Source: a virus (taxonomy: Duplodnaviria; Heunggongvirae; Uroviricota; Caudoviricetes). Taken from it: 47,222 nt of DNA. Location: positions 1 through 47,222 of IMG/VR virus record IMGVR_UViG_3300000976_000008. The stretch is one strand, 5' to 3'. Below, one piece after another: positions 1-40,848 of the stretch. Made by a program: the position numbers and the translations under genes. Numbering within the stretch: position 1 is the stretch's first letter; the number at the start of each line of letters is the position of its first letter. The notes below the pieces were generated by a model, which saw only the letters and a list, made by a program, of their open reading frames with translations, did no database searches and had not been told where the DNA came from.

Positions 1-50
1 CTGAAGAGGAAGCACCTGCTGAAGAGGAAGCACCTGCTGAAGAGGAAGCT
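1..50 (+). repeat. 18-nt tandem repeat (GCTGAAGAGGAAGCACCT unit, ~2.7 copies visible) encoding AEEEAP
   Basis: Direct repeats ctgaagaggaagcacctg at 1-18 and 19-36, partial third copy from 37. Confidence 0.9.
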
Positions 51-95
51 GCTCCAGAAGTAGCCGAAGAAGGTGGCGAGAGCGAAGTCGCTTAA
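1..95 (+). CDS. 3' end of an acidic low-complexity protein (truncated by window start)
   Basis: Frame starting at nt 3 reads EEEAPAEEEAPAEEEAAPEVAEEGGESEVA then TAA at 93-95; a hairpin follows. Confidence 0.7.
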   Translation, partial: EEEAPAEEEAPAEEEAAPEVAEEGGESEVA

Positions 96-122
96 TAGCG
101 TCTAGTTTAGCCCAGATCCAGT

Positions 123-13672: not shown

Positions 13673-14680
13673 CTAATCTTCGTCGAAGTCAACCGTACTT
13701 TGACGTCTCTTATCAACTCGTTTGCTCGCATCACCAATACTCCTATTTATCGGAGAGTCAGTAAATTCTAAACTGCGAAGCTTGACAAATTTCATAAAAC
13801 CAGTGACAGTAGTCCTAGATAAATTAGATCTCTGCACTAATTTACCAATAATTCCATCATGTGGCCTATCATCGTTCTGCATCATCCATTCAAGAGAATT
13901 AAGAATCAACAGATAATCATCATTATACTGACACATCTCCCTAGCTTCTTCCATGAAGCGGAGCATAATATCATTTATTGGTCTGGTTCTAGTAGACAAA
14001 TGAGTCATGTAGGAACCAGAATTCTTCCTATCTCTTCCTTCCTTCTTAATGTAGGCAAGGATTACAGTTCTTGCAATCTGTGACCACATATTGAAGACTT
14101 TGGACATTCCCCTATAAATAATTGTCTCAGAACCGCCGTATCTTTCTTGAGTCGGTTCCAACATCACTTTAGATTCCAAGGCAGCACCACATTTCGGGCA
14201 CTTCTTGTGCATCTTGATCACTTCTTCGATAGTCTTAATACCATATTCTCTACCGGCAGGATTATATAATAGAGAATCTGAAGGTCTATCGTAACTGAAG
14301 CAAGCTCTGCAATGCGGACGAGCACGGTACTTGTAAAGAGTACGCTCAATTTGCACCCAGGCGGTTTGAAGAAGATCACCAAATGCGGATTCTTCTTGGC
14401 CAGGGTATATTGTGTGGAGACCCTGTTTTCGAATTATTTGTCGAATCAACTCAGTAGCATGTGACATAATTTGGTCACGAAGAACTACTTTAGTGCAGCC
14501 AGTCCACAAATACTGGGTCAACTGCCATTCGACAATCTCGTTTATAAAATAAAGTTTACGCTTGGCATCAGGTGAGACCGAGCCGCTTCTGGGTTTTTCC
14601 TCCGTTGGACTTTCCTCCGCTTGATTTACTGAGGAGTCGTTTTCCAACTTGGAATCTGCTTTTGATGAGTTGGGCACCAT
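13673..14680 (-). CDS. Late-transcription sigma factor, T4 gp55-like, with Zn-ribbon insertion
   Basis: N-terminal LYFINE, region-2-like GDLLQTAWVQIERTLYKY...SKVFNMWSQIARTVILAYIKKE (compare gp55 DMIS.G.ENC.QY..NF...KNPFAYFTQI...AFLRRI.KEK); lies between uvsW and terminase. Confidence 0.7.
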   Translation of the reverse strand: MVPNSSKADSKLENDSSVNQAEESPTEEKPRSGSVSPDAKRKLYFINEIVEWQLTQYLWTGCTKVVLRDQIMSHATELIRQIIRKQGLHTIYPGQEESAFGDLLQTAWVQIERTLYKYRARPHCRACFSYDRPSDSLLYNPAGREYGIKTIEEVIKMHKKCPKCGAALESKVMLEPTQERYGGSETIIYRGMSKVFNMWSQIARTVILAYIKKEGRDRKNSGSYMTHLSTRTRPINDIMLRFMEEAREMCQYNDDYLLILNSLEWMMQNDDRPHDGIIGKLVQRSNLSRTTVTGFMKFVKLRSLEFTDSPINRSIGDASKRVDKRRQSTVDFDED

Positions 14681-16208
14681 CGATACTCCCGCCAGGAAAC
14701 ACAACCGAAGTTCGGTACCCAGCCTGCACCATCGTCTTCAATCGTTCTTTTGAATGGTCATACAAATATCTGTTGCATCTGAAATAGAAATCAAAGACTC
14801 GACTTTGACCTCTTTTGTTGTGCCGTAATGCACGGCCAACTTTCTGAATGAAATCAGAACGCAACTTGCCACCAGTAGCTATAATTAAATTTTCACAGCC
14901 ACCTTTGAGATCCAGACCACGATTAATAATCTTGCCTCCAATAAGTACGTCGTATTCCCGTTCCTCGAACGAACGCAATAACTCTGTGCGACGACGTTTT
15001 GGAGTTTTACCATAGATAAAATGGGTTTTTAGACCAGAATCATTGAGTTCTTTCTCAAGATTCTCGCCAAGTTTGATGCTATCAACAAGCACTAATGTGC
15101 CGTCACCCTTATATTTATGGCAAATAGAACTAATCAAACGATGGAATTTCACGCTATCGGTCATGTGTTCAGTTCGAGCAATATCATAGGCAGATCCCTC
15201 TTTAATGCTCCCATCAACACCGTAAGCCATCATCCAATATGTGCATGGGATAATCCTACCAATCTTTTCCAGATTCTGTCTAGTTTCCTTCGCAATCACA
15301 GAACCAAGATGTTCTTGCATCACAAGACCTTCTACAGGCTTTGAGACATCAAATGGTGTGCCAGAGAAACCGTAGCGTCTTCTACCCTTAAACCACCTCC
15401 TAAACAAATTCTTGAATGGAACTGAAGCAGCCTTATCGCACTCATCTACCAAAATCATTTCGGCAGTTTTGACATAAGATTGTAGGAATTTAGCATTTTT
15501 CTTCCTAGTCTTATGCCCCCTCATTCGTTGTTCCCACTTGGCTATCCTTTTCTCATATGCAGCATCCGTCTCTTTAAGCTTCCTCTCAGGAAGTTGAGGT
15601 ATTTTCGTTGGGCTTTGTAGGGATTGTATGGAGCCAACCACAATCTTCTGACCATTGGGTTTCTGACCAGAATAAAATAATCCAACTTCCTCAGCGATAT
15701 CTCTAAGTTCCAATCTACTCTTCAACTGATCGATCACAACAGTCTGATCAGCAATAATAACAGTTGGACAATCTATCGCCTTAGTGATGCCACATATAAT
15801 CTCGCCTTTGCCGCCACCAGTGGGAATATCAAAAATCCCACATTCTATTCTGCACGCAGCTCGCACAGATCTAAGCTGGTGTGGGTCGAAAGTGATCCCA
15901 GGCAACAAATCAAGCCCAACATCGTCAGGCTTCATTGGTTTATAATCCCACTTTGGTCTCTCATCCTTGATATCCAGCGGGAATCCGTGCTTTTTGCAAA
16001 CCCCTCTAAGCATACTCAGCAAGGGTCTAGCCATCCTCTGCTTGGCACGGTTATATTTCCTATATACTCCATCCCAGTGACTCATCTGACTTACATCAAT
16101 GTAAGTTCCAGGAGATGCAACACTGAATTCAACCCAAAGAATTTCTTCCTCGGCAGTTGTGATATTATCAAACCACAACCATTGATTATCATGGAGCACT
16201 ACACGCAT
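14568..16208 (-). CDS. uvsW: SF2 DNA helicase, UvsW-like
   Basis: Walker A IPTGGGKG, ILVDECD, GFSGTP, IINRGLDL, IQKVGRALR, VFDF motifs. Confidence 0.92.
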   Translation of the reverse strand: MRVVLHDNQWLWFDNITTAEEEILWVEFSVASPGTYIDVSQMSHWDGVYRKYNRAKQRMARPLLSMLRGVCKKHGFPLDIKDERPKWDYKPMKPDDVGLDLLPGITFDPHQLRSVRAACRIECGIFDIPTGGGKGEIICGITKAIDCPTVIIADQTVVIDQLKSRLELRDIAEEVGLFYSGQKPNGQKIVVGSIQSLQSPTKIPQLPERKLKETDAAYEKRIAKWEQRMRGHKTRKKNAKFLQSYVKTAEMILVDECDKAASVPFKNLFRRWFKGRRRYGFSGTPFDVSKPVEGLVMQEHLGSVIAKETRQNLEKIGRIIPCTYWMMAYGVDGSIKEGSAYDIARTEHMTDSVKFHRLISSICHKYKGDGTLVLVDSIKLGENLEKELNDSGLKTHFIYGKTPKRRRTELLRSFEEREYDVLIGGKIINRGLDLKGGCENLIIATGGKLRSDFIQKVGRALRHNKRGQSRVFDFYFRCNRYLYDHSKERLKTMVQAGYRTSVVFPGGSIDGAQLIKSRFQVGKRLLSKSSGGKSNGGKTQKRLGLT

Positions 16209-16219
16209 AATTCATCCGA

Positions 16220-16432
16220 CTAAGGCATGACTTCTAACAAATACGATGGCATTCCTTCCGGACCTCGACCACCAATATTTACATCAACCCAATACCCCGG
16301 ATGGTTGACAGTCCGTGAATCTGTCAAGGAAACAACAACGGCTTGTCTTGTATCATCATCTTGGTGAACTAGAACATTCTGACGTTCTTTGATCGCCACA
16401 CCATTCCGATCAACAATCCTAAAACTGGTCAT
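16220..16432 (-). CDS. Small hypothetical protein, possibly SH3/YopX-like beta fold
   Basis: ATG at 16432 overlaps the end of the upstream gene; DRNGVAIKE resembles the DKNGKEIYE motif. Confidence 0.5.
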
Positions 16433-17306
16433 ACAATTCGTCTCTATGAGCTGGTTCTGAAAGCCTTTCTCCAACGAATCCAAGCTTACGCTCGTTCATA
16501 AGATCAAGTTGTTGCTGAGATACAAAGTTCGGACCTGGAGTCTCAACATAAGTATCGAAAGCAACCGACTCAACATGCCCATCAAGAAAACCGACATTTG
16601 CAGAGCCAGTGTGTCTAAAATGCACAGTTGGGTAATTGCGGCTAGGAGGATCTAGGAGCCAATTCTCTTCAAAACTGAAAGCCGGTGGAGAGAACGACGT
16701 CAACTTTACCTGTGCACTATCAGCAAACACAATCGTCCGAGATGTAGATCTAAATTCAGCGAAAGAACGAGAAACCAAATTTTCAGACAATACAGCCCTG
16801 TAACTTGGAGGAGGGTATTCAACACCCGACGCACGTGAAAGATAATAGCCATTATACCCAAAGCCGCTCGCTGGTTTACCAAATCTGACATTATCCAACA
16901 GCGAAGTCGTAAGATTAGGACACTGGTAACTTGTTCTATTCGACTCCATGAAAGGAGCCAGAGGACCAGCACTGAAATCTAATTGTTCTTTGGGATCAGA
17001 TTTATCGTAGTCAATTTTGCCGAACCAAAAGTTTGATGTCCCTTGAGGCCCGGAAAAAGATTGCAGATAGCTCAATCTTTCCTTATCTTCGACTACATAT
17101 GGCACCATCAATTCACCATGTATGTCAGCGTAGTTATGTAGAGCAATTAGAAGTTGTTTCACCCTGTTCTTACACTGCGTCCTCCGTGCCGCTTCTCTCG
17201 CTGCTTGAACTGCTGGAAGTAGTAAAGCTAAAAGTATCGAAATGATCCCGATCACAACCAGAAGTTCAATTATAGTAAAAGCCCGCTTCGATCTACGTAT
17301 ATTCAT
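16419..17306 (-). CDS. DUF1559 family prepilin-type N-terminal cleavage/methylation protein with H-X9-DG C-terminal motif
   Basis: RRSKRA|[48 protein letters not shown] and [17 protein letters not shown]. Confidence 0.95.
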
Positions 17307-17367
17307 ATCAACCTGAACAAGGAATTGCCACAAGAATTTGTGGAAAGGAAGTTACCGCTGCCGCACC

Positions 17368-19575
17368 CTAGATAGTGCAGCTGTCATTATCACAATACTT
17401 AGAGCCAGCCGCTTCCATTACATAACTCGCATAATCTGCATTCTTCAGATTACTATTATAGTCAGCAACTTCTTCAGGAGTACACGCTTCATACGGAGCC
17501 TGAGCATACCCATGGTCTTCAGCAGGCAAGAAACTAATACCCTTAATCTTGTCTTCGAAAGCTTCCAAGACCAATGGGATCTCCGCAGCTTCTTCCTTCT
17601 TGAAAGTAATCGTACAAGAGACTTGATTATCAGCCCAGAACGCCTGGTAATCAGCAACATTCTGCATTTGTTCCCAAATGCTAACATCTTGAACAGCCCT
17701 AACCCTCTCATCGGTCACCGCAAACTTCACAACAACCGTACGTTCCTTATCACTCACAGAAGGTTCAACATGGAAGCCAGCATCTTTAAGGATACCAACC
17801 AATGGTGAATCCAAAGCAACGCGAACACGACGCCAATAAGTGCTAGCAACAGGATGGTGAATACCAGGGGTTGCACCAGCGACCAAAGAAACAGTACCAC
17901 TAGGCTTGACGGACGTCACCTTGATAGATCTGTTGACGCAGAGCCATTCTGAATAGATCTCGTCCCATCTCTTGATCTCAGTGTATCCAGCATCACAGAA
18001 ATTCGTCAGAACTTCTCGTCGACCAAACTTCGCAAACGCTTGAACAATCCCACTCTGAGACAACCCAATTCGACGATTACGAAGAGTAACTTGATTAGTT
18101 CGTCTATTGTGAGTCGGTAGCAAAGTGACCGCTTTCGCATACAAATATGCGAATTTCAAGGTCCGAGAATAATCGTCTGCGTCATCATGGTTAGCAGGGA
18201 AAGTCTCAACCAAGTTACATAGTTCATATGACTCAAGAGATTGTTCTAAACATGGATTACCACCCATGACTCGACCATCAATACCAGGTTGAGGTCCATC
18301 AGCCATTCGGCCAAAATCTCTCATGTTGTCAAGATACATCAATCCTGGCTCACCATTCATGGCAATATGTTCGCCAATCTTCGAATAATCTTGGCCAATT
18401 GTAGCGAAGATCGAATTATTCGAAACCCAACGATGGTGGTTCAATGCATTCCAAGTCTCAATCGCAGGGCAAAGACGATCCAAAGGAATACCAGTGTCTT
18501 TGAAATCTTCATTCGTGCCAGTATAACGACCATCAGCATAGATAGCGTTCACAGCATCAAAGAATTTGTCCTTCTCGTCTTCATTCAACGTCTCTGCGGG
18601 GTTCTTCATACCGCAGTAAGCGTCATCGTCAGGCTCGCCAAAAGCTATCTCAGCAGTTCGACGGACATTGCCAGCAACAACACATCTACCAACATAATTC
18701 ATCAAATCAACAATATCAACACTAGTCAGAGTATCATTGACTCGACGATCTAAATGCTGACGAATGAGATCATGTAACTCAACAAGGATAGTTGGTCCGG
18801 AAGCACTCCCGCCAAATCCCGCAATATCAGAGCCAGCAGGTCTAATACTATCATAATCAAAAGTTACTGCACCTGCACCAGAGTTGATGGTGTAAGAATG
18901 GATCAATTGACGAACAGAATCAACCCAACCTTCTCTCGAATCTGGAACAACGTATTTCCAGATTTTATTTGCTGGTTGGTTAATCTTAATCCGACCAGCC
19001 CCTTTGGTGTCGAAACCAACGCCAACACCCAGCATTGACATGTCCATCAGGAAGCAGAATGGCTCGGCAGGATCTGTTTCAATCTTATCGTGCGTCGAAA
19101 CGAAACCACAATTATTGAGAGCAGCACTTCCCCGCTCCCACATAAAATCAGTTCCCATCATCCAGAATCCACGACCTGGAGGGGTAAACTTAAAATCCCA
19201 AATCCGTTGAAACATCTCTTGGGCGGCTGGTTGTGCCTCTTCATAATCCCAAGGCAAGTGTAATGATCGTTGGTGCCGTCTTTGAATCTCAAAGCAACCT
19301 TCAACTACTCGCTGGACACAATCACAAAATGTTTCTTTGTTTCCGTCCGGCTTAATACGGGAATATGTTCTATAGAAGATGAATTCGCCGAGACCGTTGA
19401 AACCAAAGTCTGGTTTCTTCCCGTCGAATTGCTTAAGGAATCCCGGATCTAGCCTAAAGTAGTCCTTATCATCATGATGTCGAAAGTACGTCTTCGATAT
19501 ATTCTCAACATTTGTGTTGGGATTCTCAACTTTAGTACCATCAGTGGTCGCTGTCAATGACACAATCGTCTCCAA
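17368..19575 (-). CDS. nrdJ: Class II (adenosylcobalamin-dependent) monomeric ribonucleotide reductase
   Basis: PPGRGFW.MG, ALNNC, GGNPCLEQSLESYELCNLVE, RRIGLSQSG, TSVKPSGTVS, C-terminal CDNDSC; TTG start with GGAG. Confidence 0.95.
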   Translation of the reverse strand: METIVSLTATTDGTKVENPNTNVENISKTYFRHHDDKDYFRLDPGFLKQFDGKKPDFGFNGLGEFIFYRTYSRIKPDGNKETFCDCVQRVVEGCFEIQRRHQRSLHLPWDYEEAQPAAQEMFQRIWDFKFTPPGRGFWMMGTDFMWERGSAALNNCGFVSTHDKIETDPAEPFCFLMDMSMLGVGVGFDTKGAGRIKINQPANKIWKYVVPDSREGWVDSVRQLIHSYTINSGAGAVTFDYDSIRPAGSDIAGFGGSASGPTILVELHDLIRQHLDRRVNDTLTSVDIVDLMNYVGRCVVAGNVRRTAEIAFGEPDDDAYCGMKNPAETLNEDEKDKFFDAVNAIYADGRYTGTNEDFKDTGIPLDRLCPAIETWNALNHHRWVSNNSIFATIGQDYSKIGEHIAMNGEPGLMYLDNMRDFGRMADGPQPGIDGRVMGGNPCLEQSLESYELCNLVETFPANHDDADDYSRTLKFAYLYAKAVTLLPTHNRRTNQVTLRNRRIGLSQSGIVQAFAKFGRREVLTNFCDAGYTEIKRWDEIYSEWLCVNRSIKVTSVKPSGTVSLVAGATPGIHHPVASTYWRRVRVALDSPLVGILKDAGFHVEPSVSDKERTVVVKFAVTDERVRAVQDVSIWEQMQNVADYQAFWADNQVSCTITFKKEEAAEIPLVLEAFEDKIKGISFLPAEDHGYAQAPYEACTPEEVADYNSNLKNADYASYVMEAAGSKYCDNDSCTI

Positions 19576-36876: not shown

Positions 36877-37203
36877 TCAGCCTTCAATAGCTGGTGGGTG
36901 TATCGCAGAGGGAATCTCTGGTGCGACACCGCCAATTTGAACCAAACCCTTTTCCCCAAGCTTCATTCCAGGAACGAAGGTGACGGACTCATCCATCGCT
37001 TCAATGGGGACCTTGCTAATCATCTGTTGCAAGGGCATAGGGTCGGTTAAACTCTGACCAGGATTGGCGGCTACTTCAACATCGGCGAAGACCGTAGTCG
37101 ACACCAACACCAAGCAGCCCATATCGCCCATGTTCTTAGCGAACATTTGGCGGACGACTCTACCATCCCGATCAGTACCAACAATCTTGAAACCGGTCTG
37201 CAC
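36877..37203 (-). CDS. Hypothetical protein coupled to pspA
   Basis: GTG start overlaps the pspA TAG stop (TAGTG at 37201-37205). Confidence 0.65.
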   Translation of the reverse strand: MQTGFKIVGTDRDGRVVRQMFAKNMGDMGCLVLVSTTVFADVEVAANPGQSLTDPMPLQQMISKVPIEAMDESVTFVPGMKLGEKGLVQIGGVAPEIPSAIHPPAIEG

Positions 37204-37883
37204 TAGACCGCACCCTTGTCAGAAGAAGCAGAAGCAGCAGCCATCAGACGTGCAACCTCATCATCGACAGATGCGTCTCCGCTTCCGTACTTCTCTTCGA
37301 GATTCTCAGTATCGTCGGAGCGAAGTTCTTCCCAAGCTTCGGCATCACTCTCAGCGTCTCTCGCAGCTTCTTCGAGATTACCGAGTCGAGCCAGAGGGCC
37401 ACCATCCATACCACTTGCCGACTTGGCGAGATTGGTACGAAGTTGACCACCTGAAATCCGTGCAGCCAGAGTTGCCTGGTTGCTCTTCGCTTTGGCGATC
37501 TTGTTTCTCGCCTGACCAAGTTGCTTCCGGAGACTAGCAACGACATCGTCATTCTTCTGGATCTCGCTAGCGTAGGTCTTCGATTGTGCATCTGCGGCTT
37601 GCTTCTTAGCCACAGCAGAACTCACGTCGGCCTCATTCCCAGCCGCCGCCGCCTTTTGTGCGAGATTACTCCACTTGTCGGCTTCCTTCTCGGAATCCTC
37701 AAGTTGCTTCTTGCGAGTATAGTTCTCTTTCATCAGACGCTGAATGTCAGATTCAAAACCGTTGATCTGCTTCTCAGAGTCGATGATGTCGTACTTTGCA
37801 TCTCGCACAGGATCTCCAATTGCCTCAGCAGCTTCATCCGTCTTTTCACGGAAAAAATTGCCCAATGCTCTAAACAAACTCAT
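37203..37883 (-). CDS. pspA: PspA/IM30 (Vipp1, YjfJ) family protein
   Basis: Amphipathic N-helix MSLFRALGNFFR, DP...L...I.D.EK, long coiled coil, A.KA...GNE, C-terminal L..LE....E..AEA..EL and SVDDEVARL; 226 aa. Confidence 0.9.
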   Translation of the reverse strand: MSLFRALGNFFREKTDEAAEAIGDPVRDAKYDIIDSEKQINGFESDIQRLMKENYTRKKQLEDSEKEADKWSNLAQKAAAAGNEADVSSAVAKKQAADAQSKTYASEIQKNDDVVASLRKQLGQARNKIAKAKSNQATLAARISGGQLRTNLAKSASGMDGGPLARLGNLEEAARDAESDAEAWEELRSDDTENLEEKYGSGDASVDDEVARLMAAASASSDKGAV

Positions 37884-39844: not shown

Positions 39845-40720
39845 TTAGATGGCCACGGCGACCGAGAAAGCCCAAGAGAGGGCAACGAAAGTGGCAGCGG
39901 CGACAGCACCAGCCGCAGGATTCTTATCAATAGCAATTTCCTTCGAAAGCTTCTCCGAAGGCAAGAAGAGTTTATCAGCAATGACTCGCATCGAAACGAG
40001 CAACAACATACCGACAGCAGCGATTGAGACCGTAGGAATCAGTTCGGCGACAATGTTGCTACCAGCACCAACCAGAGCCGTCTTCATGATGATTCCACAA
40101 CCGACCAAGAAACCGCCGAAAGAGAGACCAGCAGCTAAATTGTCGTCGTTTTCAATCACGTCATGAACGTCGTAAGAAGTGATCTTCTGGAAGACGAAGC
40201 CTCCAAGAACCAGCATCACTTGTCCGATAGCCCAATAAACCAAAAGATCGACGATACCGTGGCCCCACGAGAGTGAATCACCCGTCAAAGCACCGGCGAT
40301 AATCAACCCTGTCGCAATAGAGCTACCCGCCACCACGAAAGCAGTTCCGCAATTCCGATCAGTTGTGATCTCTTTCTGAATGCTGAACTTGTACAAAATC
40401 GATTTGTCGTTCACCCAAACACTCAGTCTCAGTAAGACGACTGAGAGAAGACCGTAAACCCCAAGTGAAAGGAAAGATTCCCCAACCGAATCGCCACCGA
40501 CACCGTAAGTTGTTCCGCCGAGTGCGATAACGAGTCCGATCATGTAACCAGCAAATGCGATCCCGAAAGCAGGATTGTCCCGCTCAGTGAGTTCGTCATC
40601 GAACGAGAAGCTTGTAGTCTTGTCGAAAACAATTCGACTCAGAAGAATGAATCCGACGATCACCGAGAAAAACGGCACCGCGTAGAAAATCTTCTGCAAA
40701 GTAATCCAAAAATCGCCCAT
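39845..40720 (-). CDS. DUF350 (YjfL / UPF0719) inner-membrane protein, tandem-domain form
   Basis: Multiple TM helices with repeated EL/EI....DN.A.G....G motifs (DELTERDNPAFG, KEITTDRNCGTA, DVIENDDNLAAG, KEIAIDKNPAAG); AGGA before ATG 40720. Confidence 0.88.
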   Translation of the reverse strand: MGDFWITLQKIFYAVPFFSVIVGFILLSRIVFDKTTSFSFDDELTERDNPAFGIAFAGYMIGLVIALGGTTYGVGGDSVGESFLSLGVYGLLSVVLLRLSVWVNDKSILYKFSIQKEITTDRNCGTAFVVAGSSIATGLIIAGALTGDSLSWGHGIVDLLVYWAIGQVMLVLGGFVFQKITSYDVHDVIENDDNLAAGLSFGGFLVGCGIIMKTALVGAGSNIVAELIPTVSIAAVGMLLLVSMRVIADKLFLPSEKLSKEIAIDKNPAAGAVAAATFVALSWAFSVAVAI

Positions 40721-40848
40721 GTCGAGAGTCCTGTTCATCCTATTAGAGTTGGTTTGTGGAATAGTTGTTCGCCCCATGTTGCGAGCAAACGATCCCCGTA
40801 AACCTTAGAGATAGGCGAGTAGGGGAATTGTACCCCTAAAATACACCG

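Follow-up and report, generated by a model that had tools for sequence, protein, structure and literature searches.

A host-related DUF1559 prepilin-like gene in a 408-kb phage genome and its possible place in planctomycete surface fibres

Why would a large phage carry a gene for a DUF1559 protein, a type of pilin-like protein found in great numbers in planctomycetes? We know of no function for any DUF1559 protein, nor of the machinery that would assemble one, and a literature search returned no paper mentioning DUF1559 together with phage. The question is raised by a protein, here P0001, encoded in a stretch of 47,222 nucleotides (the window) that forms the first 47 kb of a 408,349-bp IMG/VR record with a CheckV completeness of 100%. 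The window also encodes major capsid, portal, large terminase (TerL), baseplate, tape-measure-like and primase proteins. The original prediction, made from the letters of the window, had suggested that P0001 could be processed by the host and either built into host pili or used to jam them. In order to assess this, we set out what the protein looks like, how its gene sits in the phage, where it came from and which role best accounts for it.

The prepilin-like protein P0001

The open reading frame (ORF) of P0001 starts with ATG and encodes 295 residues with zero internal stops. A longer form starting at a TTG (17333) is possible; the ATG start gives a 9-residue basic leader, equal in length to that of the nearest homologue, P0002. 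The leader meets the hydrophobic segment at a class III signal junction, in which MNIRRSKRA is followed by FTIIE, with F10 at +1, E14 at +5 and P31 at +22. Residue -1, as read from the sequence, is Ala as opposed to the canonical Gly. This position is Gly in 109 of 119 orthologues and Ala in 10 of the 119, and the Ala is common to P0002, P0004 and P0005. Because the closest cellular homologues share it and it is found in those 10 orthologues, we regard Ala at -1 as a lineage trait and not as a lesion of the phage copy. Ala at this position is tolerated in Pseudomonas PilD work. The features of the locus are collected in Table 1.

Table 1 Features of the DUF1559 locus (positions in the window)
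Feature	Position	Strand	Basis
SF2 DNA helicase, downstream neighbour	14568..16208	-	Pfam ResIII, Helicase_C; phrog_16 E 6e-54
Lineage-specific insert, ~1.16 kb, nrdJ-helicase junction	16209..17367	-	Kin comparison
70-codon ORFan, part of insert	16220..16432	-	Sequence; absent at kin loci
DUF1559-type prepilin gene P0001	16419..17306	-	295-aa ORF; Pfam, NCBIfam; cellular homologues
H-X9-DG motif, H232-x9-D242-G243	16578..16613	-	TIGR04294
Hydrophobic alpha1-N, residues 10-34, F+1/E+5/P+22	17205..17279	-	N_methyl/TIGR02532; PDB profile; AF2
Basic leader peptide MNIRRSKRA, residues 1-9, Ala at -1	17280..17306	-	Sequence
Small hairpin CCACAA-ATTC-TTGTGG, 22 nt 5' of DUF1559 ATG	17328..17343	-	Sequence; not scored as terminator
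Class II (NrdJ-like, B12-type) ribonucleotide reductase, upstream neighbour	17368..19575	-	Pfam RNR_Alpha, RNR-II_ins_dom, Ribonuc_red_lgC; phrog_367 E 6e-129

P0001 exceeded the thresholds of four profiles: Pfam N_methyl (27.8 bits against a cut-off of 21.2), TIGR02532 (22.6 against 16.3), PF07596 (DUF1559/SBP_bac_10; 56.6 against a gathering score of 23.3) and the NCBIfam H-X9-DG profile TIGR04294 (21.8 against 19, at residues 229-248). The 19-residue DUF1559 N-motif is present in the sequence, and H232, D242 and G243 are invariant among 76 aligned orthologues. The full architecture that had been described from the letters, namely a class III signal with Glu at +5, the motif and the H-X9-DG domain, is therefore borne out by the Pfam and NCBIfam thresholds as well as by the residues themselves. 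The match to PF07596 covers profile positions 1-46 to 1-61 only, of 268. When the P0001 orthogroup was compared with a typical DUF1559 family by hhalign, residues 6-139 were aligned with a probability of 99.9, while the head past approximately residue 140 was aligned neither by the Pfam profile nor by hhalign; H-X9-DG occurs in both families. On these alignments, the remainder of the head is specific to the P0001 subgroup.

The AlphaFold2 model of P0001, computed with the alignment of 76 orthologues (pLDDT 88, pTM 0.83), predicts a helix from residue 12 to 62 followed by a mixed beta head. Matches in a profile search of the PDB were confined to alpha1, and all of them were type IV pilins or pseudopilins. 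Foldseek returned no significant match for the model, with pilins on top of the list (best E 0.07), and a structural search of BFVD gave no match at E <= 0.001 (best 0.6). The exhaustive structural search with VIA-align placed almost exclusively type IV pilins and pseudopilins among its top 25, with Z values of 5.9 for PilA4 (the best), 4.7 for ComP and 4.5 for EpsG, all of which are under the level of a safe fold match. C45 (alpha1-C) and C129 (head) are invariant in the orthologues, which suggests a disulfide and therefore export of P0001. We read P0001 as a type IV pilin-like protein whose head is enlarged and specific to its family.

The insert at a variable junction of the phage genome

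The tight packing of the gene between nrdJ and a helicase, also part of the original prediction, was confirmed, with 61 nt separating the DUF1559 gene from its upstream neighbour, the ORFan overlapping its 3' end by 14 nt and then ending 11 nt ahead of the ATG of the helicase, an SF2 enzyme with ResIII and Helicase_C domains. Among 5.8 billion proteins the ORFan had no homologue but itself, and a longer 87-aa form of it (16220-16483) matched neither Pfam nor PHROG. A promoter and terminator scan returned zero sites on the coding strand from nrdJ to the helicase; as the insert is without any predicted promoter-like or terminator-like site on that strand, the DUF1559 gene is likely to be co-transcribed with nrdJ and the helicase.

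A cassette repeat of this phage was considered at the DUF1559 locus and rejected, since an nhmmer profile built from 14 copies found 47 sites in the genome and none near 16-18 kb. A partial resemblance to the repeat, AATTCCTT...CAGG, occurs 4 times in the genome versus 0.4 times in shuffles, too few to use. The repeat itself is an element of ~65 nt composed of TTAAC, a hairpin with a GCAACA loop, CAGGA and ATG. Its 47 nhmmer sites, most of which belong to a single array, share the minus strand; they lie at G000:C1:183000-198000, 210000-214000 and 239000-240000, with one weak copy at 40770-40800 of the window. At the ends of the record (window 1-100 and G000:C1:407965-408349) we observed a single CDS on the plus strand coding for an acidic tandem repeat of the EEAPA type, the frame of which leaves the 3' end, resumes at the 5' end and stops near base 95. 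Because this frame spans both ends, the 408-kb record seems to represent a circular or permuted genome that was opened within the repeat, with no true linear end.

The capsid protein of this phage has relatives on 171 IMG/VR contigs, the best 80 of the 171 being 73-91% identical to it, and the complete genomes among these 80 measure 341-395 kb. The order of the genes flanking the insert (a 276-aa ORF, nrdJ, the helicase and a 343-aa ORF) is conserved in the kin. In the closest of them, L047, L048 and L055, whose helicase and nrdJ are ~77% identical to those of this phage, nrdJ is separated from the helicase by ~110 nt holding neither a DUF1559 gene nor the 70-codon ORF; more distant kin have unrelated ORFs at the junction, which there spans 0.4 to 3.4 kb. 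A PF07596 search of ten kin records, of which five are 98-100% complete, found no DUF1559 gene in any, the same search having found P0001 in the present phage. As the kin lack DUF1559 and the contents of their junction vary, the block formed by the DUF1559 gene and the ORFan is, by this comparison, a lineage-specific insert in a variable junction, and DUF1559 was not found in the kin searched.

Several further observations were made on the kin genomes. The spacer between nrdJ and the helicase contains a GC-rich, terminator-like hairpin with a T-rich tail in the closest kin (L047:7900-8000, L055:7900-8000 and L048:1200-1300). This hairpin is replaced by the DUF1559 insert in our phage, where no terminator is predicted. 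The junction of L051 encodes a 302-aa ORF with a twin-arginine-like signal (RRSILKGIGAA; L051:4625-5533), together with a 641-aa ORF and a 145-aa membrane ORF, so that other exported or envelope proteins also appear to occupy this hotspot. Lastly, nrdJ is split by an insert of ~1.1-1.2 kb in L049, L050, L052, L053 and L057, and an insert of ~1.2-1.3 kb splits the helicase in L056 and the 343-aa ORF in L053. Such gene-splitting inserts could be inteins or else introns that carry homing endonucleases; in the window, none of the three genes is interrupted.

A family-restricted host orthologue and other phage DUF1559 genes

The best matches to P0001, which has thousands of DUF1559 relatives, are full-length cellular proteins of Planctomycetaceae of ~298 aa and 60-74% identity. 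The closest four, P0002-P0005, are 71-74% identical to P0001 (P0002 74%, P0004 and P0005 71-72%), and their contigs are cellular, with purA, pyruvate kinase (pyk), planctomycete PSCyt/PSD and Tad/secretin genes nearby. In a tree of 119 members, P0001 is sister to P0002 (SH-aLRT 97) within a P0001-P0005 clade (SH-aLRT 100); a phylogeny against planctomycete proteins, which had been advised along with the original prediction, thus nests the phage protein among cellular ones. Based on these data the gene is evidently host-derived and comes from a planctomycete of the family that contains Fuerstiella.

Despite this ancestry the gene has the base composition of the phage. Its GC content is 43.4% and its GC3 36%, against 42.9% GC for the phage genome and similar values for the neighbouring genes, whereas the nearest cellular homologues have 50-57% GC and 52-69% GC3. 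The terminal branch of P0001 (0.31) is not lengthened when compared with that of its cellular sister P0002 (0.43). An alignment of 75 cellular orthologues has 120 columns with a conservation of 90% or more; P0001 keeps 111 of these columns and P0002 110, and the nine deviations of P0001 are either conservative or a one-residue deletion common to P0002. Comparison of the P0001 gene with its nearest cellular counterparts gave a dN of 0.21 and a saturated dS, which precludes a dN/dS ratio for the phage branch. The conserved columns, the branch length and the saturated dS, together with the intact frame, exclude the pseudogenisation that would have spoken against the original prediction. Since its composition is phage-like and its protein conserved in spite of saturated dS, the gene appears to be long resident: it is old enough for full adjustment to the composition of the phage and has been kept under host-like purifying selection.

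The DUF1559 family had been described as hugely expanded in Planctomycetota. The copy numbers agree with this description: Fuerstiella marisgermanici and a related MAG, two Planctomycetaceae genomes, have ~70 DUF1559 paralogues each, and in P. limnophila no paralogue group is larger than DUF1559, which counts 68 members including two essential ones (PMC10632474). Each of the former two genomes holds exactly one full-length match to P0001 (63% identity, ~420 bits), all other paralogues matching the N-terminal 60-130 residues only, at <=87 bits. Counted in samples that are no census, and with only the 15-29 best candidates scored per genome, one match at E <= 1e-50 was present in 58 of 81 genomes of the Fuerstiella GTDB family and two in none, while across the whole phylum matches were restricted to five genomes of that family, with 0 of 146 other Planctomycetota genomes. 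Since there is one match per genome, and in the Fuerstiella family only, the phage captured, on these counts, a conserved, single-copy and family-restricted orthologue and no variable paralogue. The cellular orthologues are isolated genes, ~360-590 nt away from the called gene upstream. A conserved cellular neighbourhood was looked for and rejected: six contexts share no synteny, and the Tad/secretin genes found close to P0004 and P0005 are no general feature.

Because the orthogroup is restricted to one family, the DUF1559 gene is the sharpest host or donor marker found and points to a host in the family of Fuerstiella; G042, the closest species genome searched, encodes a protein 71% identical to P0001. 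A second host-like gene of the phage (39845-40777, minus strand) has matches in 12 of 151 Planctomycota genomes, from all 12 of which the DUF1559 orthogroup is absent, so that the host-like genes of this phage lead to different planctomycete families. At an identity of only 32-41% the signal of this second gene is much weaker than that of the DUF1559 gene and probably older. A PspA-like ORF (37203-37883) gave no match at E <= 1e-20 in the same host cross-check.

Capture of DUF1559 genes is not confined to this phage. A search of viral catalogues, one of the checks proposed with the original prediction, yielded 35 further DUF1559 loci in IMG/VR (L012-L046). These came from the profile scan alone, as scanning IMG/VR with the single P0001 sequence gave nothing, nor did a tblastn search of the cultured phages in INPHARED with P0001. 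The majority of the 35 loci show the full prepilin and H-X9-DG architecture on contigs of low GC (30-39%). Besides a large terminase, complete records such as G012, G013, G015 and G018 have one or two PF07596 genes of full length, and one complete DUF1559-bearing record has direct terminal repeats. Their capsid type differs from that of the present phage, with no phrog_138 capsid. Seventeen viral DUF1559 proteins from low-GC phages form one cluster (L023, L025, L027-L036 and L038-L042), a member of which has relatives of 60-91% identity in many metagenome clusters and a 54% relative on a 2.9-Mb contig, presumably cellular. Cluster records G013, G014, G015 and G018 measure 126-171 kb, and an nrdJ-like gene lies ~4-6 kb upstream of the DUF1559 gene at L027, L031, L034 and L042. 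None of the other viral proteins resembles P0001 over its full length, the likeness being limited to the N-terminal 60-130 residues. As the lineages of these phages differ and the likeness of their DUF1559 proteins stops at the N-terminus, phage capture of DUF1559 is, to judge from these genes, recurrent and independent, with other paralogues taken elsewhere.

Proposed role and comparison with known systems

The phage genome was searched for an A24 prepilin peptidase (PF01478) and for a second N_methyl protein, and neither was found, whereas genomes of the host lineage encode 3-4 A24 prepilin peptidases each. It is therefore a reasonable inference that P0001 would depend on the host enzyme. 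We consider it likely that P0001 works as a processed subunit in a host fibre system. The explanation that we find best, and hold to be fairly probable, is that its gene is a functional, host-derived accessory gene (a 'moron') for a replacement subunit of host surface fibres, analogous to P-FimU and P-PilA. In this scheme a bacterium of the Fuerstiella family would have been the source of the gene, which then entered the variable nrdJ-helicase junction. The gene product would be directed to the inner membrane through the class III signal, where a host A24 prepilin peptidase would cleave after Ala9, and the conserved alpha1 would then enter a host pilus- or pseudopilus-like fibre machinery, replacing or joining the single-copy orthologue of the host. 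The likeliest consequence would be an altered surface fibre that reduces the adsorption of competing or sister phages in the manner of P-FimU-type subunit replacement. That the pay-off should be superinfection exclusion or receptor alteration is put forward by analogy, and only tentatively.

A different benefit, which we judge rather unlikely, is one of maintenance, whereby the phage, in the manner of an auxiliary metabolic gene, would supply a close copy of a core fibre subunit that is short-lived and so keep the uptake, secretion or adhesion fibres of the host working after host shut-off in a long jumbo-phage infection. The very conservative copy and its host-like evolutionary rate favour such a role, as does the presence of the other host-like gene (39845-40777) in the same phage. 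In addition, fibres of the crateriform structures of planctomycetes bind dextran and have been proposed to serve in macromolecule uptake (PMC5394234). The phage copy is indeed conservative and, unlike P-FimU, not visibly diversified, which would fit maintenance equally well. A needed gene would however be expected to be more widespread, while this one is absent from all ten kin records, including the five complete ones, and sits in a variable junction. The absence in kin, the turnover at the junction and the repeated capture of the family by unrelated phages lead us to prefer a competitive role over maintenance, and the sporadic presence fits a competition gene of fast turnover.

The second half of the original prediction, that P0001 could jam host pili, corresponds to a dominant-negative mode of action, in which an overproduced subunit would poison assembly or block the secretin and thereby switch off host pili or type II secretion. 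Overproduced major pseudopilins do disturb type II secretion. Inhibition of assembly has also been raised as possible for truncated PilA-like proteins of phages (PMC12952977). P0001, by contrast, is full-length and keeps the invariant head residues C45, C129 and H-X9-DG, which a pure jammer would not need, and this makes the mode improbable to us. It is more improbable still that the gene is a neutral passenger, recently captured from the host and of no use to the phage, as might be thought from its occurrence in one phage of the lineage only, at an insertion hotspot and adjoining an ORFan; its fully phage-adjusted GC and GC3, the intact frame, a protein conserved in the face of saturated dS and the retention of DUF1559 genes by unrelated phages, among them the 17-member viral cluster, all argue otherwise. 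An assembly chimera or host contamination, named with the original prediction as what would refute it, has nothing in its favour beyond the IMG/VR class of the record ('linear'). The two neighbours of the gene are phage genes that stand in the same order in kin, and the gene itself is on their strand, tightly packed and of phage composition; given this GC, GC3 and synteny of the flanks we consider chimerism excluded for practical purposes.

We return to the replacement subunit as the preferred explanation. A bolder version of it, which strikes us as decidedly unlikely, would have the captured gene encode the one family-wide, single-copy 'core' DUF1559 subunit, such as a primer or base, without which the fibres made of the ~70 variable paralogues could not assemble. 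Were this true, the phage would control the whole fibre and macromolecule-uptake apparatus of the planctomycete, and its gene would be the first genetic handle on the function of DUF1559. More generally, DUF1559 is among the largest families of Planctomycetota, and the capture singles out one subunit for experiment. The repeated capture and the choice of a conserved orthologue suggest that these fibres matter in competition among phages or between phage and host. The gene further provides a marker that would tie a lineage of 340-410 kb phages with no cultured member to the family containing Fuerstiella, and, in concept, it may carry the replacement of pilins by phages into a further phylum and a further pilin-like family.

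Phage-borne homologues of pilins are already known. In Pseudomonas, the prophage protein P-FimU becomes part of a pilus that remains unimpaired, and it blocks tip-binding phages (PMC12952977); PilA-like genes occur in virulent, non-temperate phages (Sztanko et al., Cell Rep 2026, PMC12952977). The points added here to the original prediction are that the captured gene is the single-copy orthologue, that the kin searched lack it, that residue -1 is Ala and that such homologues have an experimental precedent. Like P-FimU and the phage PilA-like proteins, P0001 is a phage-encoded homologue of a host pilin-like protein with a prepilin signal of its own and, as we infer for P0001, a dependence on host machinery. 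It differs from them in belonging to the DUF1559/H-X9-DG family and in being about twice the size of FimU or PilA; unlike P-FimU, it is associated with a planctomycete host and a 408-kb jumbo phage. For P-FimU, experiments have shown both incorporation and defence, whereas P0001 is known from its sequence.

With the cellular DUF1559 proteins P0002 and P0004/P0005, P0001 shares its length, its leader with Ala at -1, the motifs, the two invariant Cys and H-X9-DG, and it is set apart from P0002-P0005 by being phage-encoded and of phage base composition. The other IMG/VR phage DUF1559 genes likewise have intact N_methyl, DUF1559 and H-X9-DG features within phage genomes, yet they show no full-length likeness to P0001 and belong to different lineages, mostly of lower GC. 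Finally, PilA4 (6xxd), EpsG (4lw9) and PulG (5wda) resemble P0001 in the class III signal, in an alpha1 with E+5 and P+22 and in an alpha-beta head that is predicted for P0001; the head of P0001 is much larger than theirs, with Z values of 3-6 and no sequence likeness past alpha1.
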